DNA from: Ilumatobacteraceae bacterium | GTDB lineage: Bacteria; Actinomycetota; Acidimicrobiia; Acidimicrobiales; Ilumatobacteraceae | Length of the DNA stretch: 64,000 nt | Direction of reading: 5' to 3' | Assembly: GCA_043740085.1 (NCBI GenBank) | Contig: JAYUCY010000094.1 | Span: forward strand, 2,325-66,324 | Shown here: positions 2,958 to 62,772 of the stretch, one piece after another | How positions within the stretch are numbered: the stretch's first letter is position 1 | Layout: each line of letters starts with the position of its first letter | Translations under genes and position numbers: made by a program | The notes under the pieces: generated by a model | Told to the model about the DNA's origin: nothing | Seen by the model: the letters and a program-made list of their open reading frames with translations, nothing else | Databases searched by the model: none

Positions 2958-4028
2958 ATGGCACAACTCATCGAACGTCCACTGCACAGCGGGCTGCCCT
3001 ACAGTGCCCAGATGCGCCGTCTCGTGGGTTTGTTGTTTGCCGCTGCACTCGTTGCCTCGTGCAGTTCGTCCAGCGGCGCCGCCAGCGACACCAACGAAGC
3101 GAGTTCCGTCTCGACAATCGCACTAGCCATTGCTTCGGCACCCATGACCTCCGATGTCGTCGCCGAGCCCTCCACCACAGCCATCACAGAGAATACGGCG
3201 ACGGCATCATCGACCGCCGAACCCACAACAAGTAGGCCAGACGTCATCACCGGGCGGTCGTACGACGTGTTTGTTCCCTCCTCGTATAGCGCCAGCACGG
3301 CAATGCCGTTGGTCGTGTTGCTGCACGGTTTCGGCGCCACGGGCGCTATCCAAGAGGCCTACTTTCAGCTGCAGCCGCTGGCCGAGAGCCGTGGCTTTCT
3401 CTACGTGCACCCTGACGGCACGATCAACGCAATCAACAAGCGGTTCTGGAACGCGACCAACGCCTGCTGTGGTTTCGGCTCCACCGTTGACGATGTGGCG
3501 TACCTCACGGCGCTGGTGAAGGACGTGCAGAGCAGCTACAACGTTGATCCGAAACGTACCTTCTTCGTCGGCCACTCCAACGGCGGCTTTATGTCGTACC
3601 GAATGGCGTGTGACCGCGCCGACATGGTCGCTGCCATCGTCAGCCTGGCCGGCGCAACGTGGGACGACAACACGAAGTGCAACCCCTCGGAACCGGTGAG
3701 CGTGCTGCAGATCCACGGTACGGCCGACGGAACGATTGGCTTCGAGGGCGGCACACTGCTGGGCAACGATCATCCGGGAGCGCGCGAGACCGTGGCCACC
3801 TGGTCTGCCAACAACGGGTGCACGGGTTCCGCCACAGAACTGCCCACTCCGCTCGACCTCGAAGCCAACATCGCCGGCGACGAATCAATCGCCACTCAAT
3901 TCAGCGGGTGCCCCGTCGGCGGCGCGGTCGAGTTGTGGGCCATCCCTGACGCCTCGCACATTCCAGCAGTGTCGACAACGTTCGGCGCCGACATCATCGA
4001 CTTTCTGTTCGACCATCCCAAGCCGTAA
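2958..4028 (+). CDS. secreted lipoprotein, alpha/beta-hydrolase esterase (PHB-depolymerase/LpqC-like family)
   Basis: Lipobox LVASCSSS. HGFGATG oxyanion region and GHSNGGFMSYRMACD nucleophile elbow. Confidence 0.75.
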   Translation: MAQLIERPLHSGLPYSAQMRRLVGLLFAAALVASCSSSSGAASDTNEASSVSTIALAIASAPMTSDVVAEPSTTAITENTATASSTAEPTTSRPDVITGRSYDVFVPSSYSASTAMPLVVLLHGFGATGAIQEAYFQLQPLAESRGFLYVHPDGTINAINKRFWNATNACCGFGSTVDDVAYLTALVKDVQSSYNVDPKRTFFVGHSNGGFMSYRMACDRADMVAAIVSLAGATWDDNTKCNPSEPVSVLQIHGTADGTIGFEGGTLLGNDHPGARETVATWSANNGCTGSATELPTPLDLEANIAGDESIATQFSGCPVGGAVELWAIPDASHIPAVSTTFGADIIDFLFDHPKP

Positions 4029-4030
4029 TT

Positions 4031-4963
4031 GTGCGTCGAGTAGCAGCCGCTCTGGTGATCTGTGCGTTCACGATGGGTGCCTGTTCCGACGATCACGAAG
4101 CGCTGACTCGCACCACCGAGCCGACTGCCGTCGTGTCGACGTCGCACCCGGTGTCGACGCTCGAATCAGCACCTGATCCGGTGGCCGGCCGGCCCTTCGA
4201 CGTCTATCTGCCGTCCGCATACGACGGCATCACAGCGCTGCCGCTGGTGATCCTGCTGCATGGGTTCGGCGTCACCGGAGCGATGCAGGACGACTTTTTT
4301 CGTCTACGCGGCCTTGCCGAGTCCCGCCGCTACTTGATGGTGAGCCCCGACGGAACACGCAACCCCGAGGGCGCGCCCTTCTGGAACGCGACAGACGTGT
4401 GCTGCGGGTTCGGCGCAACGGTTGACGACTCCGCCTACCTGGCGGCCGTGATCCAACAAGTGCAATCGGACTACGCCGTTGATGCACAGAAGGTTTTCGT
4501 CGTCGGTTTTTCCAACGGCGGTTTCATGGCGTACCGGATGGCCTGCGACGATGCCGACCTCATTGCCGGCATCGTCAGCATCAGCGCGGCGACGTTTCTC
4601 GACACGGCGCGGTGTACGCCCACGTCACCGGTAAATGTTGTCGAAGTTCATGGCACCAACGACGAGACCATCACCTATGAGGGCGGCACGTTCGAGGGAA
4701 CCGCTCATCCCGGTGCCGAACAGACAGTTGCGGCATGGGCCGCGTACAACGGCTGTGCCATCTCACCCAAGACCACCCCTGCGGCACTCGACTTGGACCG
4801 CACACTCATCGGCAACGAGACGCGCGTCACTCGCTACCAAAACTGCCCGGCGGGCGGCGCGGTGGAACTATGGACGATTGTGGGCGGCACACACGTCCCC
4901 GAACTGTCGAGCTCATTCAGCGAACAGGTCATCGACTACCTCCTCGCCCACCCGAAACCCTGA
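4031..4963 (+). CDS. secreted lipoprotein esterase, tandem paralogue of 2958..4028
   Basis: GTG start 3 nt after the previous stop. Lipobox TMGACSDD, HGFGVTG and GFSNGGFMAYRMACD. Collinear with its neighbour along the whole catalytic domain. Confidence 0.75.
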   Translation: MRRVAAALVICAFTMGACSDDHEALTRTTEPTAVVSTSHPVSTLESAPDPVAGRPFDVYLPSAYDGITALPLVILLHGFGVTGAMQDDFFRLRGLAESRRYLMVSPDGTRNPEGAPFWNATDVCCGFGATVDDSAYLAAVIQQVQSDYAVDAQKVFVVGFSNGGFMAYRMACDDADLIAGIVSISAATFLDTARCTPTSPVNVVEVHGTNDETITYEGGTFEGTAHPGAEQTVAAWAAYNGCAISPKTTPAALDLDRTLIGNETRVTRYQNCPAGGAVELWTIVGGTHVPELSSSFSEQVIDYLLAHPKP

Positions 4964-4972
4964 ACCGAAGGG

Positions 4973-5404
4973 TCAGAGGTCGTAGCGGTAGACGTTGGTG
5001 TCGCGCTGGGTGAAGCCGATGCGCTGATACAGCCGATTCGCCGCCTCGCGCGACGGGCGACTGGTCAGGCTGACGGCCTTGACCCCGCGGGTGCGAGCCT
5101 CGGCCAACGCCGCCTGATTCAACGAGTCGCCGACACCGTGACCGCGAACGCTGCCGTCGACAACCACGTCCTCAATCCACGCCTTGAGACCCGTGGGAAT
5201 GCGGTACAGCACCAGCGTCAGGGTGCCAACAATCGCTCCGTCGAGACGGGCCAGAAACACCACCGACCCGGGGTCGGCGACCAGCAGCGCAACCTGCGCC
5301 GCGTCCGGCGGCGGCGAACTCTGCGACAACTGCGGAATGAGGTGGGCAAAGGCCTGCACCAATTCGTCGCTGGCAATGGTTGCAATCTCGATCGTGACAC
5401 TCAC
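4973..5404 (-). CDS. GNAT family N-acetyltransferase
   Basis: 143 aa. Acetyl-CoA binding motif VRGHGVGDSL followed by ANRLYQRIGF. Confidence 0.85.
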   Translation of the reverse strand: MSVTIEIATIASDELVQAFAHLIPQLSQSSPPPDAAQVALLVADPGSVVFLARLDGAIVGTLTLVLYRIPTGLKAWIEDVVVDGSVRGHGVGDSLNQAALAEARTRGVKAVSLTSRPSREAANRLYQRIGFTQRDTNVYRYDL

Positions 5405-5477
5405 GGCACTGCACGATAACGGTGTGCGGTTTGCTCAAGTGCGACTTGCGGCGCGCTGCTGCGTATGGTGCGCCCTC

Positions 5478-6374
5478 ATGGAACCAGCCCGCGCTCTCGC
5501 AGCCGCCCTCGAACCCGTCGTCGGCCAGGTGTATTTCTCCCCCGAATGCCACGCCGGCTACGCCGCGCTGGGGTTCGCTGTCAGCGTCAATCAGGCTGGT
5601 GGTGTTGCGCTGCCCGATGGGCCGGCCTACTTCACCAGTCGCGGCTCGGTGATGGGCCAGGTTCCGGGCGAAGTGGTCGCGGCCGCGTTTGCTGTGTTCA
5701 ACCCCGCTGCGGTCATCCCATCTGTGCGTTATGGCTGGACGCTCACTGACGCCGCCACCATCTGCCAGGCACGCGACGACGGCGCCATTGCACAGTTGGA
5801 ACGGCTGCTGGGCACGGCACCGGCAGGTGTCGAGCGCGCCAGCGCCATTCTCACCCGCGCCGTCGAGCCACTGCGGCCAGAAGGGCGTCCACTCTACGCG
5901 GGCGTGTGTTCGCTGCCGATGCCGGCCACTGACCTGGGCGTGGTGTGGCGTCTCGGCGACCAACTTCGCGAGTACCGCGGCGACAGCCACACGGCGGCCT
6001 GGATCAGCCTCGGAATCGATGCCACCGAGATCGGCTTGCTCAGCGAGCTGTATTGGGGACTTCCAATGCGCAGCTACAGCCGCACCCGCTCCTGGAGCGA
6101 CGAGCAGTTCGAGGCCGCACATCAACGGTTGCGGTCACGCGGGTTGGTCGACGAGATCGGTTTCACGACCGCCGGTCGCCGACTACGCGAAGAAGTCGAG
6201 ATCAACACCGACCTGCAGATGTCTGGCATCGTCAGCGGGATGGGCAGCGGTTTGCAAGAACTCGTCGACATCCTCACGCCGTGGGGCGAAGCAATCCGCG
6301 CCGGCCACGGCTACCCCGCGTCGGGTCCGCACGACCTTGCCAACCTCGCTTCCGACAGGGCCGGCGGCCACTGA
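5478..6374 (+). CDS. conserved hypothetical protein (helical, actinobacterial type)
   Basis: Track ORF 5184..6374, started at the ATG at 5478 (MEPARALAAALEPVVGQVYFSPECHAGYAALGF...). The upstream part overlaps the GNAT gene antisense. I recognise no catalytic motif. Confidence 0.6.
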   Translation: MEPARALAAALEPVVGQVYFSPECHAGYAALGFAVSVNQAGGVALPDGPAYFTSRGSVMGQVPGEVVAAAFAVFNPAAVIPSVRYGWTLTDAATICQARDDGAIAQLERLLGTAPAGVERASAILTRAVEPLRPEGRPLYAGVCSLPMPATDLGVVWRLGDQLREYRGDSHTAAWISLGIDATEIGLLSELYWGLPMRSYSRTRSWSDEQFEAAHQRLRSRGLVDEIGFTTAGRRLREEVEINTDLQMSGIVSGMGSGLQELVDILTPWGEAIRAGHGYPASGPHDLANLASDRAGGH

Positions 6375-6386
6375 TACGGTCCGCAC

Positions 6387-7487
6387 ATGATCCTGCACAC
6401 GCTCGCCGACGTCGACACCGACCAGTTTGGGGACCACACCGGTTGGCACCCCAAAGCTGAGGGCCTGTGCCAGGGCGAAGTGTGCGTGCCCGCCGCCGGC
6501 AGCCTGCGTGCCGACGGCACCGTCGACATCGAGATCGCTGCGCAGCGGCTGGGTATGCCGCTGGTCCACGACGCGGAAAACGGAGTCTGGGCACTCGGCC
6601 CGGCCACGTTGGGCGGCAAGGCACTGACCACCGCGGCCGCTGCCGATCCGCTGCTTCGGACGCACGACGGGCAGCCCTTCCGCCTGTCATCGCTGCGGGG
6701 CCGCAAGGTCCTGCTGGTCGCCTGGTCCAGTTATTGAGGCTGTCGCACCAGCCTGCCCGGGTGGCAGGCACTCCACACTGAACTCGCAGCACTTGGCCTC
6801 ACTGTCGTCACTGTCGCCCTCGACGTCGAGCCCGCACACACCACCAAATGGATCGAGGCCGCACGGCCCGCCGACCCCGCGCTGGCGCACCCAAGCCTGG
6901 TCGACACGCAGCACATCACCGATGAACTGTTTGGCTTCAGCAACATCCCGATGGCCGTGTGGATCGACGAGACCGGCACCATCGTGCGCCCCGCCGAGAG
7001 TGCCTCCATCGAGACCAGCCCGTTGCGCAGCATGGACATCCCCGAGGGTTTGCCCGAGCGAATCACGCGCATGCTCACCGAGGTGAAGAAGATCCCCGAC
7101 ATCGCGGTCAACTACCGCGCAGCCATTGTGGACTGGGCAACTCACGGCGACGCGTCGCGCTACGTCCTGTCAGCAGACGAGGTCGTTGCCCGCTCACAGC
7201 CGCGCGGCGACGATGAAGCTCGTGCTGCGGCCTGCTTCGAACTTGGTGAGCATCTGCGACGCACCGTCGGGCCGGATGCCGCCGTGGCATGGTGGCGAGA
7301 AGCACATCGCCTGTACCCAGCAAACTGGACATACAAGCGCCAAGCCTGGACGCTCGTCACCACCCCCGAAGGTGCGGACGACAACGACCTGATGCAGGGT
7401 CCCACCGACGTCTACGAAGGCAACTGGCTCGACGACGTCATCGCCTCCGGCGGCGGCGCGGCCTACATCGTCGTACCGCAGCTCTAA
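6387..7487 (+). CDS. thioredoxin-fold (TlpA/ResA-like) redox protein with in-frame UGA at 6735-6737, candidate selenoprotein (alternative: nonsense pseudogene)
   Basis: Track ORFs 6387..6737 and 6951..7487 are in the same frame (difference 564 nt). My translation of 6738-6950 has no stop: GCRTSLPGWQALHTELAALGLTVVTVALDVEPAHTTKWIEAARPADPALAHPSLVDTQHITDELFGFSNIPMAVWIDETG. The UGA sits in RGRKVLLVAWSSY-U-GCR, the position of the redox Cys motif of Trx-fold proteins. Confidence 0.6.
6751..6769 (+). promoter_or_regulatory. SECIS-like stem-loop downstream of the in-frame UGA
   Basis: GCCUGCC-CGGGU-GGCAGGC: a 7-bp G/C-rich stem and a 5-nt loop containing GGU. It starts 13 nt after the UGA. An alternative weaker hairpin is GGCUG-UCGCAC-CAGCC at 6738-6753. 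Confidence 0.45.
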
Positions 7488-7596
7488 CGACCTCACTCAC
7501 GGCGCGCTCGGCGGTGCCTGAGCGCTGGCAGTTCCTGAGCCGCGCGTGTTCGTTGTGCTCAAGTTGCATCGAGTGATGGCGATAGCGTGGCGAGCC

Positions 7597-8553
7597 ATGG
7601 AGCACGTCCGCTGGCTGGCGCAACCCTCGCTACAGCGTCCCATCGTTATTGCGGCATTTACGGGCTGGAACGATGCGGCCGATTCGGCCAGCAACAGCGT
7701 TCGACACCTTGTCGAAGCATGGCAGGCACAGCCGCTCGCCGAGATCGACCCCGAGGAGTTCACCGACTTCGCCACGGTTCGCCCACACGTACGCCTCACT
7801 GCTGAGCAACGGCGCACCATCGTCTGGCCGACAGTTGGCGCCTGGAGTGCCAGCACTCCAGGCGGCGATGTGATTTTGATCTTGGGGCCCGAGCCCGCGT
7901 TGCGCTGGCGGCTCTTCACGCAGCAGCTGATCGGAATTGCTCAGCACTTCGACGTTTCAATGGTGCTCACGCTCGGTGCGCTGTTGGCCGACGTGCCGCA
8001 CAGCCGGCCCGTGCAGCTGATCGGTACTGCCACCGAGCAAGACGTGATCGACCGTTTCGATCTGCAGCGCAGCCGCTACGAGGGCCCTACCGGCATCGTC
8101 GGCGTCGTGCAAGATGCGTGCACCCGCTCCGATATGTCATGCGCCTCGTTGTGGGCGGCGGTTCCGGCATACGCCGCGCAAGTCCCATCACCGAAGGCCT
8201 CGCTGGCTCTTGTCGAGCGCGCCTGCGAAATGATTGGAACTCCGGCACCCACGGCGCGGTTGCAGTCCGAGGCGCTCGCCTATGACGCTCGCGTTACCGC
8301 CTTCGTCTCCAACGACGCAGACCTCGTGGGCTACGTGGAACGGCTGGAGTCGCTCTCTGATAGCGGGCAGCTCGACGACGCCGATTTCGGCGAAGTCGAC
8401 GACGATGATGACGATGACGATGACGACACCGTTGGTGGCGAGCTGGAGCCTGTCGTTGATGTTGAGGTGGAAGTGAACAGCGAAGCCTTCATGGCCGATC
8501 TTGAGCGCTTCCTTCGCGACCAAGAGGGCGACGAACCGCACGGCGAGAAGTAA
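7597..8553 (+). CDS. PAC2 (proteasome assembly chaperone 2-like) family protein with poly-Asp tail region
   Basis: Track ORF 7546..8553, started at the ATG at 7597 (MEHVRWLAQPSLQRPIVIAAFTGWNDAADSAS, the typical PAC2 N-terminus). The acidic C-terminus contains DDDDDDDDD. Confidence 0.8.
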   Translation: MEHVRWLAQPSLQRPIVIAAFTGWNDAADSASNSVRHLVEAWQAQPLAEIDPEEFTDFATVRPHVRLTAEQRRTIVWPTVGAWSASTPGGDVILILGPEPALRWRLFTQQLIGIAQHFDVSMVLTLGALLADVPHSRPVQLIGTATEQDVIDRFDLQRSRYEGPTGIVGVVQDACTRSDMSCASLWAAVPAYAAQVPSPKASLALVERACEMIGTPAPTARLQSEALAYDARVTAFVSNDADLVGYVERLESLSDSGQLDDADFGEVDDDDDDDDDDTVGGELEPVVDVEVEVNSEAFMADLERFLRDQEGDEPHGEK

Positions 8554-8559
8554 CGATCG

Positions 8560-9261
8560 TCAGTCGTGCGGCCCGCGCCACACCGGGCGGCGCGGCGCCT
8601 CAAATGTAGCGGCCTGAAGGTTGCCGTCGATTGCGGCGAACGCCATCGGCCCCCACCACTCCGCCCCCACCGTTGGGTGCGGCAACTGATCACGTCGGAA
8701 CCAGCCCAGGTCGGCGGTCTCCAACGGGTGCGCCGCCAAACTGCCACCTGTGGCCCGGCAGTGAAAGAGCAGCAGGTACATCGCGAAGCGAGTGAAACCC
8801 ATTCGCTGCCCGTCAATCACGCTCAGCAGCTGCACCGGCTCGCACTCGATACCGGTCTCCTCCAGCACCTCCTTGACCACGACTTCACTGGGTGAGTAGC
8901 CGTTGTCGGCCCACCCAGTGGGGTACAGCCACACGCCACTGTCGCCCCGCTGCACCAGCAGAATCTCGCCGGCGTCGTTACCCACTACCGCACCAATTGC
9001 CACCTTGGGAGTCACGTAGCCGGGAATACCCTCGCCGACGTTCTCCATCCATTCCTGAATAAAATGGTCGGTTTCGCGTTGCACTTCCAGTGCCTCATCG
9101 GCGGCCGCCTTGATGTCGGCGGCAACGTGCAGCACCTCCTCGAACCGCTCGCGCTCATACAGGTTCTGAGAGAAGCCGAGACCGGTGCGGGCGATGCCAG
9201 CGAGCGCTTCGCTCCAGCGGGCAAGGTCGCGTGTGAAGTCCTGGGGCGTGGCGTCGCTCAC
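8560..9261 (-). CDS. NUDIX hydrolase with N-terminal helical NUDIX-associated domain
   Basis: Nudix box GWADNGYSPSEVVVKEVLEETGI. The N-terminal segment ALAGIARTGLGFSQNLYERERFEEV is typical of this subfamily. Confidence 0.85.
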   Translation of the reverse strand: MSDATPQDFTRDLARWSEALAGIARTGLGFSQNLYERERFEEVLHVAADIKAAADEALEVQRETDHFIQEWMENVGEGIPGYVTPKVAIGAVVGNDAGEILLVQRGDSGVWLYPTGWADNGYSPSEVVVKEVLEETGIECEPVQLLSVIDGQRMGFTRFAMYLLLFHCRATGGSLAAHPLETADLGWFRRDQLPHPTVGAEWWGPMAFAAIDGNLQAATFEAPRRPVWRGPHD

Positions 9262-11404: not shown

Positions 11405-12211
11405 CTACGGGGCGATGCGCTCCGGCGAGTAGATGTTCAACCGGTCCGCGCGCACAAAACCGGCCAACACCAGTCCCGCCAGACGGGCCGTGTGGACGGC
11501 CAGTGCAGTCGGTGCGCTGACGGCGACCAGCGTACTGAAGCCGGAGGACCACGCCTTTTGCACCAGCTCGAAGCTGGCCCGCCCGCTGACGAACAGGCCA
11601 AGGCCCGTAGCCGGCAGATGATCGTCGAGCAGGAGGCGCCCAATCACCTTGTCGACTGCGTTGTGTCGGCCGACGTCTTCGCGAGTCATCAGCACTTCGC
11701 CATCGTTCGTGAACGCGGCTGCGGCGTGCACCGAACCAGTGCTGTCGAACAGACCTTGCGCCGTGCGAACCGCATCGGGAATGGCATGCAGCACGTCGAA
11801 GGGGATCGGCGGCGTCGCTGGCAACGGCAGGAGGCGGGCACACAGCTCGTCGATTGCGTCGTTGCCACAGATGCCACAGCTGGACGTGGTGTTGCCCAGA
11901 CGTGGGCGCGGTACGGGAGCACGGCCACCGGTCTCCACCGTCACCACGTTGAATTCACTGTCCACTGCCGAGGCGCTGGCGCAGTACCGCACCCCAAGTA
12001 CGGGGAAGTCGGCCAACAAACCCTCCGTGTGGCAGAACCCGACCGCCAGCTCGTAGTCGTGGCCCGGGGTGCGCATGGTGGTGCTGACGGTCGCTCCATC
12101 GAGCTGCACCGTCATTGGCTCTTCCACTATCAACTCGTCGGGGTGACGCGCCCGCTCGCCAGCCATCACGGTGGTGACGAGGAGCGTCTCGCTGCGGCGA
12201 CGGGCTGCCAT
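11405..12211 (-). CDS. fdhD: formate dehydrogenase accessory sulfurtransferase FdhD
   Basis: EEPMTVQLDG..., CGICG, and the RHNAVDKVIG motif. Track ORF reaches 12268. I prefer the ATG at 12211 (MAARRRSE), which leaves 61 nt to the divergent aquaporin gene. Confidence 0.85.
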   Translation of the reverse strand: MAARRRSETLLVTTVMAGERARHPDELIVEEPMTVQLDGATVSTTMRTPGHDYELAVGFCHTEGLLADFPVLGVRYCASASAVDSEFNVVTVETGGRAPVPRPRLGNTTSSCGICGNDAIDELCARLLPLPATPPIPFDVLHAIPDAVRTAQGLFDSTGSVHAAAAFTNDGEVLMTREDVGRHNAVDKVIGRLLLDDHLPATGLGLFVSGRASFELVQKAWSSGFSTLVAVSAPTALAVHTARLAGLVLAGFVRADRLNIYSPERIAP

Positions 12212-12272
12212 GCGTGCGACGGTACCCGCACATTGCGCGATTGAGAACCGGCGGGCGAATAGGGTCATAGGA

Positions 12273-52489: not shown

Positions 52490-54184
52490 TCAGAAGCCGT
52501 CGTCGAGGTCGATCTCAGGGGGTAGTGCGACATCGTCGGAGACGTCGAGACCGGAGAAGGATTCCGACGGTGAGTCGAACGGCGAAGCATCGGTGGCTGA
52601 CATCGACACGGTCAGGTGATCGAGCGCCATCGACGAATCGTCGACTGGCGGGACGTCGGTGACCGGGGTAGTGCTGCCCTGCTCGGTTCCGGTATCAGCG
52701 ACCGCGTCATTTGGCCCGGATGGCGCTGTCATGCCGGTCACGTCGTCGGCGACGGTGTGGATACCGGCACCGCTGGAGGCGCTGTCGACGACGGTGACGC
52801 TGTTCGCGTCGCTGCTCGACGAGTCGGCTGCGGTCGCGGCGTCGGAGGAGTGGGCGTAGTTGCCCGAGCCGACACCGTCACCGCCGCCTGTCTGCGGGCC
52901 CGGCGACGGGGCGCGACCGAGGTCGAACCCGCCGTCGTTGTTGAACGTGTGGCTGATCTCTACGCCAGGAGGCGCTGTCAGCGGTGTGTCGATGTGGGTT
53001 GTGCTCTCCCGTTCGATGGGATCGCGGACGAAGTCGATCGCCTGCTTGGGTGGTGCGTCACCCTCGATCTGGGGCCCGTCGAAGTCTTGGACGACATCGG
53101 TCGCGCCGCCGTGAACACCGACAACCCGAGCCACCACCACCGGGGTGAGCACGACGGTGCCGCCACCGGCGTCGGGGTCTTCCATCTTGCCGGCATTCTT
53201 CTTCTCCCACGCCGCCAGTTCGGCCGCGTCCTTCTGTGCAGGGGAGGCCGATTCGCGCTTGAACTTCTCCTCCGGGGTCTCCTTCTTCGTCGTCGTTTCC
53301 GCGGGCTTCACCCCGGCCAGCGCCCTCAGGTTGTCGTTGCTGAACAGGGACATGTTGTGGTCGGGGTCGGCCGAACCGGAGAGTTCTTCTCCCGGTGGTG
53401 GTGGCGAGTCACTGGCGAAGTAGAGCGCGACCGGGGCGCCTCGATTTCCACCGATTGTTCCGGTGCTGGGTCCCGGGGCCCGCCCGAGTGTGTCCGTGAG
53501 GGCGTCGTGCCCTGCCTTTGGGCCGGCAGCACGGTTGGCTTCGGTGGGGTCGCGTTGGACGTCGGCGACCGAGTTCGCTCCACCGGCGTGTTCACCAAGG
53601 GGGGTGTTGTCGCCGATGCCGTAATGGTTCGGGCCTGAACGGACCTGTGTGCCATCGAGATTGGTCGGCAGTGTCTGCTCGGCTGAAAACCCGGCAGGCG
53701 CGCCGCTGGTGACATCGACGATTGTGGTGTGCTCGAGGGTGGCCGGGCGCAGGTCACCGCGCGGGTCGTTGGTCGTGATGGCGGCATTGAGGGTCGGCTC
53801 CGTGGCCGGCGCCGCGCCCATCAACAGATCGTCATGCGGCGGAACTCGCACAGCCTCGGCCTGGCCCAAACCAGCTGGGTCCAAATCTTCGGGGCCGCGA
53901 TCCCCCGGTTCGGTCGGCGTCGGGTCTCCGTACGGCGGAGGGTCGGACTCGGCGGGGTCGTGCCCAGCCGGGACGGGCGGCGATTCAACGTCCGATTCAT
54001 CCAATCGGCTCGGGGCGACGTTGAGTTGTTCGGCTTCGTGCGTTGTCGACGGGAGACCAAGACCGATTCGGAGATCCGCTTCGCTGGCGGGATCGCCGGT
54101 CGTTTCTGACTCGTGCCTCTGCCGAGCTGTGTCCTCCTCAGCGTGGACTTCCTGATCCGACATTGATACGTCGCGGCTGGACAT
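52490..54184 (-). CDS. 564-aa acidic, low-complexity protein, no recognisable domain
   Basis: Rich in D/E/T/S/P/G, with no TM or signal peptide seen. A central K/E-rich patch reads KKETPEEKFKRESASPAQKDAAELAAWEKKNAGK. The C-terminus is EIDLDDGF. Third-position G/C is high. The antisense ORF 52616..53638 looks like noise. Confidence 0.55.
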   Translation of the reverse strand: MSSRDVSMSDQEVHAEEDTARQRHESETTGDPASEADLRIGLGLPSTTHEAEQLNVAPSRLDESDVESPPVPAGHDPAESDPPPYGDPTPTEPGDRGPEDLDPAGLGQAEAVRVPPHDDLLMGAAPATEPTLNAAITTNDPRGDLRPATLEHTTIVDVTSGAPAGFSAEQTLPTNLDGTQVRSGPNHYGIGDNTPLGEHAGGANSVADVQRDPTEANRAAGPKAGHDALTDTLGRAPGPSTGTIGGNRGAPVALYFASDSPPPPGEELSGSADPDHNMSLFSNDNLRALAGVKPAETTTKKETPEEKFKRESASPAQKDAAELAAWEKKNAGKMEDPDAGGGTVVLTPVVVARVVGVHGGATDVVQDFDGPQIEGDAPPKQAIDFVRDPIERESTTHIDTPLTAPPGVEISHTFNNDGGFDLGRAPSPGPQTGGGDGVGSGNYAHSSDAATAADSSSSDANSVTVVDSASSGAGIHTVADDVTGMTAPSGPNDAVADTGTEQGSTTPVTDVPPVDDSSMALDHLTVSMSATDASPFDSPSESFSGLDVSDDVALPPEIDLDDGF

Positions 54185-55819: not shown

Positions 55820-58342
55820 TCACTCGCTGCTCAACACTGCGGCAGGATGATCACGCAGACCACGGCGAACGGGAACGGCGCCGACCACCGCCGCCAACGC
55901 CAGCACCCCGACGACGAGCAGCACCATCGGCGTGAGCGGAACGACGGGTTCGGCCAGCGTCCCGAAGCGGTTGGCCAGCAGTATCCAGAACCATCTCCCG
56001 GCGATGATGCCGAGCGGGACACCGATCAGCATGCCGGCCACGCCGATCGTGACACCCTGCCAGACTCCGACCGCCGTGACCCCGCCCGTGGTCGTACCGA
56101 TGGCCTGGAGGATCGCCAGGTCGCGGCGCCGACGGCGCACGGCGACCACCATGGCGTTCACGACGGTGACCGCGACGAGCACGACGAGCACGGTGGACAA
56201 CACGATGGGCAACGATTGCAGCCGATCGAGGCTCTCGATGTCGGACGGCCGCGCAACGCCCTGGAAGCGCAACGATCCGTAGCTGCCGAGCGCTTCGGTC
56301 ATGCGGGCCTCGAACGCCGGTCGGTCCGCACCCTTCGCGAGGTCGACGACCACGAACGCCTTGCTGGAGTCGTCTCGCGGCCCGAGCGCTGCGGGTGGGA
56401 CCAACGCGCCGACGCCGATCGACGTGCGGTCCGAACCGTTGTACAGGCCGAGGCCCGGCAGCACCACACGGCCGACCACCTCAGCCGTGCCCTTGAACCC
56501 CGACGTTTCGACCGACACCACGTCACCGATCGACACCCCGAGCTGGTGCATCGTCGTCGAGCCGAGCGCAATCTCGCCGGCGCTCGACGGAGCACGTCCG
56601 GCCCCGATCGTCGGCGGCACGGCATCGTTACCCGCACTGAACCTGACGGCTGTGACGGGCGAGCCGTCGACGGTGATCTCGCTGATCCGCAGCTCGCCGA
56701 GCCGCTCGACGTCGGGGTCGGCGCCGACGGTGGCCAGCACGTCGCCGACGCGGCTGTCGTCGGTCAATACGTTTCCGTCGAACTCGATCCGCGCATCGAA
56801 GTTGGAGCCATAGAACCGTCCGTTGTCGACGACCCGGCCAAGGCTCGACGCGAACACGATGGTTGCGGCGGCGACGGCCACGGCGGTTACCGCTCCGATG
56901 ATCGTGGCCCGTGTGGGCACTGCCGACGCGCCGCGCCCCGGCTCGAGGCCGAACCGGACCCCGGTGGTCACGTTCGGAGACGATCCACGAGCTGCCATCC
57001 AGGCTGCCACCGACGATCCCCGCACCGTCGAGCCCTGGTCCACGAAGCGAGCGTTGCGCCACGCCGGGATCACGCTGACCAGCACGACAACGAGAAAGAG
57101 GATGATCGCTCCGCCAAGCATGGCGGGCAGGTTGATCGACCAGCCCGGATGCGGTTCTGCATTACGTGCCGGGCCGACCGGTGTGAACCACGACAGCGCC
57201 GCAGCGATGGTCACCGCAGTCGCGACACCGACAGCGGCGGCGAGCATCAGGCGAACCATCATCGTGATCCACCGGTCTCGCTGCGTCGTGCCGAGTGCCG
57301 CCAAGGTGAGATTGTCACGGGCATCGAGTTGGCAGCGGCGCGAGACGGTCTGACCGACGAGCAGCAGACCGAGGAGCGCGGTGATGCCGGCGAAGATCGC
57401 CAACGCCACCGCTGCCGGTTGTGTACCACGCACCGCCTTGGCCCTTGTGACCCCGAGCGTCTGGTAGACGATCTTCTCGGCCGGAGCGAGCGCATCGACG
57501 GCGGCTCGGAACGCCGACAGCTCACCGGGGCTCGTCAACCGGACGATGGCACCTCCGTAGCCGGCTGACGGCTCGCCGAGCTGGGCATAGAGCGCGGGCG
57601 TGAGCCACACTCCGACGGGTTCGTACCCCTGGTCGACAACGACACCATCCAGGGTGTTGCCGATGCCGACCACGGTCAACTCGACGTGCGCACCGAACCC
57701 GGCAGCGTTTACAGCGGCGAGTCCCGCGTCAGGACCGGACGCGGCGGCGAACACCTTGTCGAAATCGGCGCCACTCGCGATGGTCGCCTCGAATGGGTCG
57801 CCCACGTGCAGACCAGCTGTTCGCGCGTAGGTCCGATCGAGGAAGACCTCATCAGGCGAGCCGGGATCAGCCAGCCTGCCTTCGAGCACCACCGGTCGAT
57901 CGAACGTGAACCCTGCCCGACCGTCGGTCGCGATGGCGAGTGGCCCCATGAAGAGGTCGTCGAGAGAGCTGAGCGAGCCCTGGTTGACCACCACGATCAC
58001 GCCGTGCACTCGCGAGAATTCGGCGACCATCGGCAGCGCGGCGACCTCGTCGAAGTCGAGGGCCGAGTCATCGCCGTTGTTGGGGTTGACCAGCACGTCG
58101 GCGGTACCGGTGGCGTCGATCATCCGGTCGACCGCTGATGCGGTGCGGGTTGCACCGGCCAGACCGGCGAGTACGAGACCTCCTGCCAGACCGACGAGCA
58201 CTGCGATGCCCACAAGGCTGCGCCAGCCGTGTCTGAGCTGGGCAGCGGCGACGATGAGGGCGGTCCGCACCACAGGATCAAACCACCGCGCGCCCACGTC
58301 GGACAAGGGTGCTGGCCCCCTCATCGGGTGTGCTGGCACCAC
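55820..58342 (-). CDS. FtsX-like (MacB-type, double FtsX domain) ABC transporter permease
   Basis: 840 aa with two 4-TM FtsX blocks, each preceded by a large extracytoplasmic domain. No ATPase gene is adjacent. Confidence 0.75.
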   Translation of the reverse strand: MVPAHPMRGPAPLSDVGARWFDPVVRTALIVAAAQLRHGWRSLVGIAVLVGLAGGLVLAGLAGATRTASAVDRMIDATGTADVLVNPNNGDDSALDFDEVAALPMVAEFSRVHGVIVVVNQGSLSSLDDLFMGPLAIATDGRAGFTFDRPVVLEGRLADPGSPDEVFLDRTYARTAGLHVGDPFEATIASGADFDKVFAAASGPDAGLAAVNAAGFGAHVELTVVGIGNTLDGVVVDQGYEPVGVWLTPALYAQLGEPSAGYGGAIVRLTSPGELSAFRAAVDALAPAEKIVYQTLGVTRAKAVRGTQPAAVALAIFAGITALLGLLLVGQTVSRRCQLDARDNLTLAALGTTQRDRWITMMVRLMLAAAVGVATAVTIAAALSWFTPVGPARNAEPHPGWSINLPAMLGGAIILFLVVVLVSVIPAWRNARFVDQGSTVRGSSVAAWMAARGSSPNVTTGVRFGLEPGRGASAVPTRATIIGAVTAVAVAAATIVFASSLGRVVDNGRFYGSNFDARIEFDGNVLTDDSRVGDVLATVGADPDVERLGELRISEITVDGSPVTAVRFSAGNDAVPPTIGAGRAPSSAGEIALGSTTMHQLGVSIGDVVSVETSGFKGTAEVVGRVVLPGLGLYNGSDRTSIGVGALVPPAALGPRDDSSKAFVVVDLAKGADRPAFEARMTEALGSYGSLRFQGVARPSDIESLDRLQSLPIVLSTVLVVLVAVTVVNAMVVAVRRRRRDLAILQAIGTTTGGVTAVGVWQGVTIGVAGMLIGVPLGIIAGRWFWILLANRFGTLAEPVVPLTPMVLLVVGVLALAAVVGAVPVRRGLRDHPAAVLSSE

Positions 58343-60957: not shown

Positions 60958-62772
60958 TCAATTGACGACGGTGGGTGACGTCGTGAGAAGACGACCCAAC
61001 AGCGGGTTGTCAATGTCTTCGGCGAGCATCGACGCGGCAGCGCCGTCGCCCTGGTGACCGAACGCGGCACTGTGCAGCAGCGAGCGAACGATCAGCTCCC
61101 TCATACCGGTGCGCGAGGCCAGCTCGCGCATCGTGTCGACCCACCGCTTCGTCGCAGGGTGTTCATGTCGCCGGCCGAGCTCGCACTGCGCGTCGAGGAT
61201 GTAACCATCGAGCCACACGTACGGGTCGGCGAGACGATTGCAACGCACTCGAGCGTCAGCGAGGATCTCGAAGGCGCTGTCGGTCTCGCCATTCTTCTCA
61301 GCGAGGAGCGCGAGACCTCGCGCTGCCATGCCCTCCCAACACGGATCGCCGAGGTGGCACGCCCTGGCGAACGCCTGCTGCAGCAACTCTGCTGCTCCCG
61401 ACACGTCGGCTCGGGCCAGCTGGACCTCGCCGCGCAGCGCTTGTGGCCATGGAAGGAAGGCAAGCCAATGATCTCCCTCGGCGAGCTCGATGGACAGGTC
61501 GAGTTCGTCCGCGGCCGAGTCCAAGTCCGAACGCAGCAGATGGACGCGGCCGAGCATCGAGCGAGCGTACGCCTCACGCCGACGGTCGCCGGCCGCGCGG
61601 GAGAGCCCAATGGCGTCTTCGAGCAGGGATGTCGCCCGGACGTAGTCGGCGCGATCGCTCTCCACCGAACCGAGGTAGATCGTCAACTTCGCCGTGATCA
61701 CCGGCGAGCCAGCGGCGAACTCGAGTCCCTCGGTGAGCCACCGCACGGCTCGGTTGTAGCGTGCTCGGAGGAAGTCGACGTAGCCGATCTCGGCGCGTGC
61801 TCGGGATACCGTCTCGTGGTCATGGTTGGCCAGCGCGATCGCGTCAGCCTCGTGCAGTGTGGCCAAACCTTCCTCGTCCAGCCCTCTGAGCGAGTGGATC
61901 AATGCCTCGGCCAGTACGAGTCGAGAACTCGTTCGCAGCCACGCGGCATCTGCACGGTCGGCCATTCGAACGGCGATGCGCAACGAATGAACCCCGGCTT
62001 CGACGGCACCGGCGGAAACGGCCGCCGAGCCCGCCTCCACCATTGCATGAATCGAAACGACGTCGACGGCTCCTTCGCGCGTCAACCGCGTCTCGCGCAT
62101 CGCGGCCTCGACCGCAGGACCGGGTGCGATTCCGAACTGTGTCGTGAGCAGCGCGCGACAGGCTGCGAACTGTCGCTCCGCAGCGACATCGTCGCCAGCG
62201 AGCCGGTACAGGCGAATCAGTAGCGCTTGGTGGTTCTCGTCGAGCGGACTCATCGCGGTGGCGCGCACTGCGTAGCCGATCGCCGTGTACAGCGCCCCTT
62301 GCGACAGCGATCCGAGTGCTGCCTCGTGCAGGATCGCTTCCGACGCGGCCGCAACATGGCGCTGCTGAGATAACAGCCACGACTCGAACGCCGCGGCATC
62401 TCGAACGGTCAAGCCTTCCAGCAGCTCAGTACCGAGTCCTGGAAGGTCAACGGCTGTGATCCATGATCCGCTGGTCACCTGCGAGACATCGACGATGGTG
62501 CCCGGTGGAAGACGCAAGACGACGGGGTCGCCGTCGATCGAGCCCTCTCCGCCGAGGCCCCGGCGAATCTCGGACAGGTTCCACCGCAGGGCGCGGAGGG
62601 GATCGTCGGCCTCGGCGAAGAGCAGCGCTGCCAGTTGACTCCGCGTTGGCGAGCGCTCGCTCAAGATCAGATACGCGAGCACGGCCCAGCTCTTGCGGCT
62701 CCGGAACTGGTACGCCTCACCGGAATCGCGCTCGAGGCTCGGGCGGCCTAGAAGATGGATGACGAGGCTCAT
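60958..62772 (-). CDS. SARP/AfsR-type transcriptional regulator (winged helix + BTAD + TPR-like repeats)
   Basis: N-terminus MSLVIHLLGRPSLERDSGEAYQFRSRKSWAVLAYLIL...LRWNLSEIRR, then the BTAD segment (HQALLIRLYRLAGDDVAAERQFAACRALL). Confidence 0.75.
   Translation of the reverse strand: MSLVIHLLGRPSLERDSGEAYQFRSRKSWAVLAYLILSERSPTRSQLAALLFAEADDPLRALRWNLSEIRRGLGGEGSIDGDPVVLRLPPGTIVDVSQVTSGSWITAVDLPGLGTELLEGLTVRDAAAFESWLLSQQRHVAAASEAILHEAALGSLSQGALYTAIGYAVRATAMSPLDENHQALLIRLYRLAGDDVAAERQFAACRALLTTQFGIAPGPAVEAAMRETRLTREGAVDVVSIHAMVEAGSAAVSAGAVEAGVHSLRIAVRMADRADAAWLRTSSRLVLAEALIHSLRGLDEEGLATLHEADAIALANHDHETVSRARAEIGYVDFLRARYNRAVRWLTEGLEFAAGSPVITAKLTIYLGSVESDRADYVRATSLLEDAIGLSRAAGDRRREAYARSMLGRVHLLRSDLDSAADELDLSIELAEGDHWLAFLPWPQALRGEVQLARADVSGAAELLQQAFARACHLGDPCWEGMAARGLALLAEKNGETDSAFEILADARVRCNRLADPYVWLDGYILDAQCELGRRHEHPATKRWVDTMRELASRTGMRELIVRSLLHSAAFGHQGDGAAASMLAEDIDNPLLGRLLTTSPTVVN

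Follow-up and report, generated by a model that had tools for sequence, protein, structure and literature searches.

The 64,000-nt stretch of DNA analyzed here, referred to below as the window (positions 2,325 to 66,324 of the forward strand of contig JAYUCY010000094.1, from the Ilumatobacteraceae bacterium assembly GCA_043740085.1), contains two open reading frames (ORFs), 6387-6737 (116 aa) and 6951-7487 (178 aa), that lie in the same frame and are one gene. Translation of 6387-7487 gives 366 codons with a sole internal stop, the TGA at 6735-6737, which is preceded by ...LLVAWSSY and followed by GCRTSLPGWQALH (in a longer form, preceded by GRKVLLVAWSSY and followed by GCRTSLPGWQALHTELAALGLTVVTVALDVEP). 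A first-pass annotation, made from the sequence alone, had proposed that this is a selenoprotein gene split in two by ORF calling, and it placed the pair of ORFs, the single TGA and a downstream hairpin correctly in every coordinate. Comparison of the locus with its relatives makes it highly probable, in our judgment, that this one gene specifies a cytoplasmic three-domain redox protein in which the UGA is decoded as selenocysteine (Sec) by means of a hairpin of the Sec insertion sequence (SECIS) type. The features on which this reading depends are the following.

6387-7487, plus strand: complete coding sequence of the predicted selenoprotein, 366 aa, with Sec (U) at residue 117 and the stop codon TAA at 7485-7487.
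6735-6737, plus strand: UGA predicted to be read as Sec, U117 of the motif W-S-S-Y-U-G-C; the column is TGA in relatives and Cys in full-length homologues.
6732-6734, plus strand: Tyr codon preceding the UGA, fixed as UAU (TAT in 75 of the 75 sequences with Tyr there).
6751-6769, plus strand: candidate bacterial SECIS core hairpin, with a 7-bp stem formed by GCCUGCC (6751-6757) and GGCAGGC (6763-6769) and a 5-nt loop, CGGGU (6758-6762).

The beginning of the protein, MILHTL, agrees with the N-termini of homologues (MITTEL or MILTTL). When all six frames were scanned for TGA codons flanked on both sides by at least 50 open codons and by coding-like G+C content at third codon positions (GC3), the codon at 6735-6737 was the sole case that was neither a gene boundary nor a shadow frame, and no further selenoprotein candidate was revealed elsewhere in the window by this search for coding frames interrupted by TGA. 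Otherwise TGA is the commonest stop codon here, ending 22 of 34 ordinary genes, from which it follows that UGA has not been reassigned.

A homologue scan in which each GTDB species was represented by a single genome yielded at least 574 relatives, of which the best 80 were analyzed. All are metagenome-assembled genomes of Acidimicrobiia, mostly Ilumatobacteraceae, with identities of 62-91%, which places the window in that lineage and not among Mycobacterium-like actinomycetes. The TGA occupies the identical column in 80 of 80, as W-[AS]-x-[YW]-TGA-G-C, and is followed by 238-268 open codons in all 79 relatives in which the downstream end is present; conserved residues, accompanied by normal synonymous variation, run 3′ of the UGA as far as the terminal stop codon. 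In full-length homologues from the databases Cys occupies the Sec column, in the motif WASYCGC (P0001) or WASWCGC (P0009, P0010 and P0017), encoded by TGT or TGC, and these Cys forms are uninterrupted single proteins of 350-370 aa. Among 32 diverse full-length homologues the motif is W-A-x-W-C-x-C-R, with Cys in at least 90% and Ser at the first position in two members. One Cys form, 64% identical (L082), has the same PAC2 gene downstream and thus represents a Cys variant at the orthologous locus. Both states of the column that had been envisaged at the outset, TGA and Cys, are therefore found, the former in all close relatives and the latter in other homologues, and such Sec/Cys pairing is the standard signature of a selenoprotein (PMC13188914).

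In profile scans, for which U was changed to C, the read-through protein matched the NCBIfam equivalog NF041054 ('WAxxUGC_long', ResA-like WAxxUGC motif-containing protein) with 480.9 bits against a cutoff of 300 (E = 2.6e-144), and did so from end to end, residues 1-361 aligning with positions 1-349 of a 354-position profile. The ResA-like 'WAxxUGC' family that the first-pass annotation had named therefore exists, and the protein is a full-length member of it. A selenoprotein described as 'Prx-like (UGC-containing)', with the domain pfam00578 and the motif UGC, was reported by Zhang & Gladyshev in 2008, with 46 Sec-containing and 855 Cys-containing sequences in Global Ocean Sampling data, and it was more abundant in non-marine samples (PMC2398784). 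This ecological bias fits the many relatives among the best 80 that carry river or lake names. From the shared motif and domain we infer that the published family and NF041054 are probably one and the same; another name for the family is the UGC-containing Prx-like/TlpA-like family. A literature search found no paper with the term 'WAxxUGC' and nothing relevant linking Ilumatobacter with selenocysteine. The gene is a further member of a known, curated selenoprotein family and not a discovery, since earlier work described the family along with its motif and its status as a selenoprotein.

The hairpin starts 13 nt past the UGA, and its loop 20 nt past it. Across 74 distinct sequences the seven stem pairs are formed in 98.8% of cells, and pairing falls to 29-70% when the 3′ partner is slid by 1-3 columns. 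RNAalifold, applied to the region from -30 to +66, returned an apical hairpin of 6-7 bp as the sole consensus structure; a lower or extended SECIS stem was rejected on this result. Constraint on the nucleotide sequence beyond that on the protein was assessed at 105 four- or six-fold degenerate columns where at least 90% of the sequences share the amino acid. At 0.35-0.48 bits, the codon entropies of the four hairpin codons (Ser 6750, Leu 6753, Pro 6756 and Gly 6759) rank below those of every other column; the other 100 columns have a mean of 1.46, a standard deviation of 0.33 and a minimum of 0.67. Gly 6759 is GGG in 72 of 79 sequences, although GGG accounts for just 14% of the Gly codons in these genes, and the hairpin Leu is never encoded by CTC, the dominant codon in other Leu columns. 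The four Cys forms have no such hairpin: pairing is possible at only 2-3 of the 7 positions, and the peptide encoded at this site reads R-D-(G/H)-(I/L)-A/V-... as opposed to RTSLPG in Sec forms. Both the hairpin and the constraint on the peptide S-L-P-G-W-Q-A are thus features of Sec forms that Cys forms lack, a contrast that illustrates how a SECIS located in a coding region constrains protein sequence. As a separate observation, an ENA entry of 328 aa (P0043) has Ser at the Sec column (AWASYSGCRLSLPGWQ) together with the peptide SLPGWQ encoded by the SECIS; because of a frameshift in its C-terminus, it is probably an assembly or annotation artefact rather than a real Ser form.

The codon choice immediately 5′ of the UGA is also restricted. 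The Tyr codon is invariably TAT, although TAC is three times commoner for Tyr in these genes (383 versus 122), and Cys forms have TAC or TGG at this position; the preceding Ser codon (6729-6731) is AGU in 60 of 74 relatives. The fixed UAU suggests that the context 5′ of the UGA may be under an added constraint, separate from that on the hairpin. The published model of bacterial SECIS elements (bSECIS) calls for a loop of 3-9 nt, a stem of 4-16 bp, a G in the first two loop positions, a distance of 16-37 nt from UGA to loop and a minimum free energy (MFE) of -7.5 kcal/mol or lower (PMC13188914). The hairpin lies within all of these ranges, with a 5-nt CGGGU loop, a 7-bp stem, a distance of 20 nt and an MFE of -14.2 kcal/mol. 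Its assignment as a bSECIS, made at first from spacing and shape, is thus strengthened by its conservation, its absence from Cys forms and its agreement with published constraints.

Several observations weigh against decoding of the UGA as Sec and have to be set beside this evidence. Covariation in the stem is thin: a single pair shows a double change, from C-G to U-A, in two sequences (L031 and L065). At this pair, U-G intermediates occur in four sequences and a C-A mismatch in two others. The arms also encode the conserved peptide, which accounts for the paucity of compensatory changes, and as a consequence the RNA-level evidence comes chiefly from conservation at synonymous sites and from the contrast between Sec and Cys forms. 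The Mann-Whitney probability for the difference between hairpin codons and the rest (p = 3.4e-6) is approximate, the sequences being phylogenetically related. The folding energy of a 61-nt stretch is not unusual relative to shuffled sequences (z = 0.31), as expected in DNA of 65% G+C; single-sequence folding, which is uninformative in such G+C-rich DNA, was rejected as a line of evidence, and the significance of the UGA and hairpin comes from comparison with relatives rather than from folding energy. Rfam SECIS models had no match in the window at the gathering threshold or in 6650-6850 at E <= 10, the sole Rfam match on the latter interval being a chance match on the opposite strand. Rfam covers bacterial SECIS elements poorly, so this result was expected. 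Genes for the Sec machinery were likewise missing from the sequences searched: selA, selB and selD were not found in NCBIfam scans of 40 ORFs of the window, tRNA-Sec was not found in the window by ARAGORN (tRNA-Thr only) or Rfam, and ARAGORN found no tRNA-Sec in 84 related loci. Finally, members of the UGC-containing family are predictions, with no biochemical function known for any (PMC9312934).

The retention of the UGA, the SECIS-type hairpin and some 250 downstream codons in 80 species-level genomes is nevertheless hard to understand unless the UGA is decoded, and the source genome is predicted to encode the decoding machinery elsewhere. The genes selA, selB, selC and selD have been reported throughout Actinomarinales, another order of Acidimicrobiia (preprint, bioRxiv 10.64898/2026.04.03.716425). 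The window does contain, at 11405-12268 on the minus strand, a gene for the formate dehydrogenase accessory sulfurtransferase FdhD (TIGR00129, above cutoff); no catalytic subunit of formate dehydrogenase was identified in the window. Among bacterial selenoproteins, FdhA is the most common.

The alternative that survives best, although we consider it improbable, is that a near-cognate tRNA (Trp, Cys or Arg) reads through the UGA, or that the UGA is a leaky stop under regulation, the hairpin serving to stimulate read-through and the 116-aa product being made alongside the full-length one. Conservation of the UGA and of the frame establishes read-through and does not alone specify which residue is inserted, and the lack of sel genes and tRNA-Sec in the window, and of tRNA-Sec in related loci, is in keeping with such a mechanism. 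It accounts poorly, however, for the presence of Cys at this column in homologues without the UGA, at what is the catalytic position of the thioredoxin (Trx) fold, and for a hairpin whose shape, loop G and spacing fit bSECIS elements in a family curated as selenoproteins. Moreover, if Cys were the inserted residue, a TGC codon would suffice and would avoid the burden of a stop codon; certain lineages have indeed switched in this way and lost the hairpin as they did so.

Still less probable is that the locus consists of two separate genes, one for a 116-aa protein and one for an independent protein initiated at the ATG at 6951 or at an earlier start. Gene callers annotate it in this way, and database copies are mostly C-terminal fragments of 220-240 aa, those with names being labelled 'hypothetical protein', while others are N-terminal fragments of ~116 aa that end one residue before U. 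These entries show that gene callers routinely split the gene, much as the first-pass annotation had anticipated in stating that automatic annotation would miss it. The comparative data refute a two-gene arrangement. The 213 nt that separate the ATG from the TGA, which had been judged to be coding, encode protein that is conserved in 80 relatives. The ATG at 6951, which had been doubted as a start, is M189, within the nearly invariant N-[IV]-P-x-x-V-W-I-D-E cis-Pro loop of the Trx fold, and is therefore not a true start; division of the gene would separate strand 1 of the fold from the active-site helix, in a protein whose Cys forms are single chains. Least probable of all, a nonsense pseudogene of a Cys-containing ResA-like gene, which a lone TGA in an otherwise intact frame might bring to mind and for which decay of the downstream segment had been the proposed sign, is refuted by the same TGA in 80 of 80 relatives down to 62% identity, by intact downstream codons with protein-level conservation in 79 of 79 and by dedicated RNA-level constraints beside the TGA. 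We conclude from the comparison of sequences that the in-frame UGA almost certainly encodes Sec.

The Sec-containing protein is predicted to be composed of three domains.

6387-6602, plus strand: N-terminal domain, approximately residues 1-72, with Cys28 (6468-6470) and Cys33 (6483-6485) in G-L-C-x-G-x-x-C-V-P.
6639-6986, plus strand: Trx-fold (ResA/TlpA-like) catalytic domain, residues 85-200, with U117-G-C119 and the cis-Pro loop N186-I-P-M-A-V-W-I-D-E195.
6999-7484, plus strand: C-terminal helical domain, residues 205-366, partly resembling tetratricopeptide repeats (TPR).

All three are apparent in the structure that AlphaFold2 predicts for the Cys form with 64% identity (mean predicted local distance difference test, pLDDT, 89; predicted template modeling score, pTM, 0.87). 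The central domain matches Pfam AhpC-TSA at residues 85-200 and Redoxin at 92-201, and its best PDB profile matches, with E values down to 2e-27, include Bacillus subtilis ResA (4e-24), Bradyrhizobium TlpA (2e-18) and the Geobacter thioredoxin-family protein 3kcm. Foldseek placed ResA (2f9s/1st9) at the top, with target-normalised template modeling (TM) scores of 0.76-0.78, within a range for ResA of 0.73-0.78 and at a root-mean-square deviation of ~2 Å. In the profile alignment to 3kcm and ResA there is a one-residue deletion between the Cys pair (WASWCg-CR versus WATWCPpCR), so that the redox center is U-G-C, or C-x-C in Cys forms, and not CxxC. The first-pass annotation was therefore right to place the UGA at the redox position of a Trx fold, but the W-x-x-W-C-x-x-C center that it assumed does not apply, the center being U-x-C, one residue shorter than CxxC. 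The N-terminal domain was modelled alone by AlphaFold2 as an alpha/beta domain with a pLDDT of 89.4; G19, C28 and C33 do not vary among 30 sequences, and the CxxxxC motif spans a beta-hairpin. No PDB fold matched this domain at E <= 0.001 (best E = 0.57), and no Pfam family matched either the N- or the C-terminal domain. The latter (~160 residues) is all-helical in the model, with weak TPR profile matches at profile positions 258-312. Because it has neither a signal peptide nor a membrane anchor such as those of ResA and TlpA, the protein is probably cytoplasmic.

These features can be assembled into a plausible mechanism. Acting as a SECIS, the hairpin at 6751-6769 would recruit a complex of SelB, GTP and Sec-tRNASec to the ribosome, and this complex would outcompete release factor 2 at the UGA. 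In the folded protein, Sec117 would take the place of the nucleophilic first Cys of a CxxC center, at the N-terminus of helix 1, and would attack a disulfide, a sulfenic acid or a peroxide. Cys119 would then serve as the resolving partner, giving an intramolecular selenenylsulfide that a thiol system could subsequently reduce. This proposed chemistry follows from the location of U at the nucleophilic site of a Trx fold, the presence of Cys119 two residues on and established knowledge of CxxC and UxxC oxidoreductases. The protein is thus probably a thiol-disulfide oxidoreductase or a peroxidase-type reductant that cycles between selenol/thiol and selenenylsulfide states. At another locus (L081, contig_78051 of ERZ25039534, 4764-13794), the Cys form P0009 lies among genes for OsmC, TetR and Usp directly upstream and GSHPx and MarR downstream; the association with Usp, GSHPx, OsmC and MarR is compatible with a role in oxidative stress.

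The gene lies in a conserved neighborhood, in which its immediate neighbors are as follows.

5490-6374, plus strand: upstream gene for an SCO6745-family/HTH_67 protein (NF047719, 229 bits; PF21863, 246 bits).
7546-8553: downstream PAC2-family gene.

The HTH_67 gene ends 12 nt before the selenoprotein start, and the two genes are probably co-transcribed. The gene order GNAT (minus strand), SCO6745/HTH_67, selenoprotein, PAC2, Nudix (minus strand), which spans 4973-9261, is kept in most of the 80 relatives: 69 loci have enough flanking DNA on each side (upstream, >1.5 kb before the TGA), and GNAT is found in 60 loci, HTH_67 in the same position in 63, PAC2 in 71 and Nudix in 45. In many relatives ~0.6-1.3 kb of extra DNA separates the selenoprotein gene from PAC2. 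Such an arrangement resembles core-genome synteny passed on by vertical descent rather than a mobile cassette. We considered whether the HTH_67 gene is functionally linked and found this to be unsupported, for although synteny is strong within the lineage, the distant Cys-form clade (P0009, P0010 and P0017) has different neighbors. A 526-aa ENA entry (P0057) is a Cys-form homologue fused to the downstream PAC2 protein via frameshifted stretches, an assembly artefact that incidentally confirms the adjacency of PAC2 in a Cys-form lineage. Elsewhere in the window, 2958-4028 and 4031-4963 (plus strand) are tandem paralogues resembling the catalytic domains of extracellular short-chain polyhydroxyalkanoate/polyhydroxybutyrate depolymerases, both just below the NF050058 cutoff (~139 versus 150 bits), and three large minus-strand ORFs with coding-like GC3, 55820-58342 (840 aa), 60958-62772 (604 aa) and 52490-54184 (564 aa), had no NCBIfam match at E <= 1e-8.

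A more elaborate proposal, which we regard as doubtful, is that the protein is a self-contained three-domain cytoplasmic selenoenzyme rather than a simple ResA-like oxidoreductase, that its N-terminal C-x-x-x-x-C domain, which has no PDB counterpart, serves as a redox relay or as a metal- or substrate-binding module for the U-G-C center, and that the protein forms a redox-responsive pair with the co-transcribed SCO6745/HTH_67 protein. It would further imply, should the Sec form prove uniform, that the Ilumatobacteraceae, which are abundant in freshwater and soil, are unreported obligate users of selenium. More firmly, the source organism almost certainly decodes UGA as Sec and hence needs selenium. 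The gene should be annotated as a single 366-aa selenoprotein; since public copies are mostly present as two fragments, protein catalogues of Acidimicrobiia systematically misrepresent this family. Of mild interest beyond this are the Sec form, apparently uniform throughout Ilumatobacteraceae, the N-terminal CxxxxC domain and the clean contrast between Sec and Cys forms in the codon and peptide constraints that the SECIS imposes.

Compared with known systems, the protein is closest to NF041054, with which it shares the full-length match, W-[AS]-x-x before U-G-C, the AhpC-TSA/Redoxin domain and the occurrence of both Sec and Cys forms. The motif name of that family has Ala where the window protein has Ser (W-S-S-Y-U-G-C), a position at which relatives vary between the two. 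The candidate SECIS resembles the fdhF-type element of E. coli and the bSECIS consensus of Zhang & Gladyshev in being a coding-region stem-loop just 3′ of the UGA, with a G at loop position 2 followed by another G and with spacing, loop, stem and stability within the ranges given. It differs from the E. coli elements in having no sequence likeness to them, no bulged U and no conserved lower stem.

The A-S-x-U-G signature locally resembles the active-site segment of glutathione peroxidases (GPx). The GPx profile GSHPx (PF00255) scored 21.6 bits, under its cutoff of 27, whereas AhpC-TSA (PF00578) was the best Pfam match, at 43.3 bits against 26. The TxxC motif of peroxiredoxins (Prx) has a fixed Thr or Ser at -3, a position that is Ala or Ser here and Ala in most Cys forms, and Foldseek identified ResA and TlpA, not Prx or GPx, as the closest structures. 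ResA of Bacillus subtilis and TlpA of Bradyrhizobium, oxidoreductases of cytochrome c and CuA maturation, have the same Trx fold with the TlpA-type insertion, the same F/W-W-A-x-W-C context and the same cis-Pro loop as the window protein. They possess, however, a CxxC center and an N-terminal anchor, in place of which the window protein has U-G-C, a soluble 72-residue CxxxxC domain and a 160-residue helical C-terminus. Its score against the NCBIfam ResA and TlpA models is 32.3 bits, far from the respective cutoffs of 170 and 230, and there are no cytochrome-maturation (ccm/res) genes nearby, the neighbors being HTH_67, PAC2, GNAT and Nudix. Because it lacks the CxxC center, the anchor, the ccm context and a family-level score, the protein is not a member of ResA or TlpA, yet it probably works like an oxidoreductase of the ResA/TlpA type.

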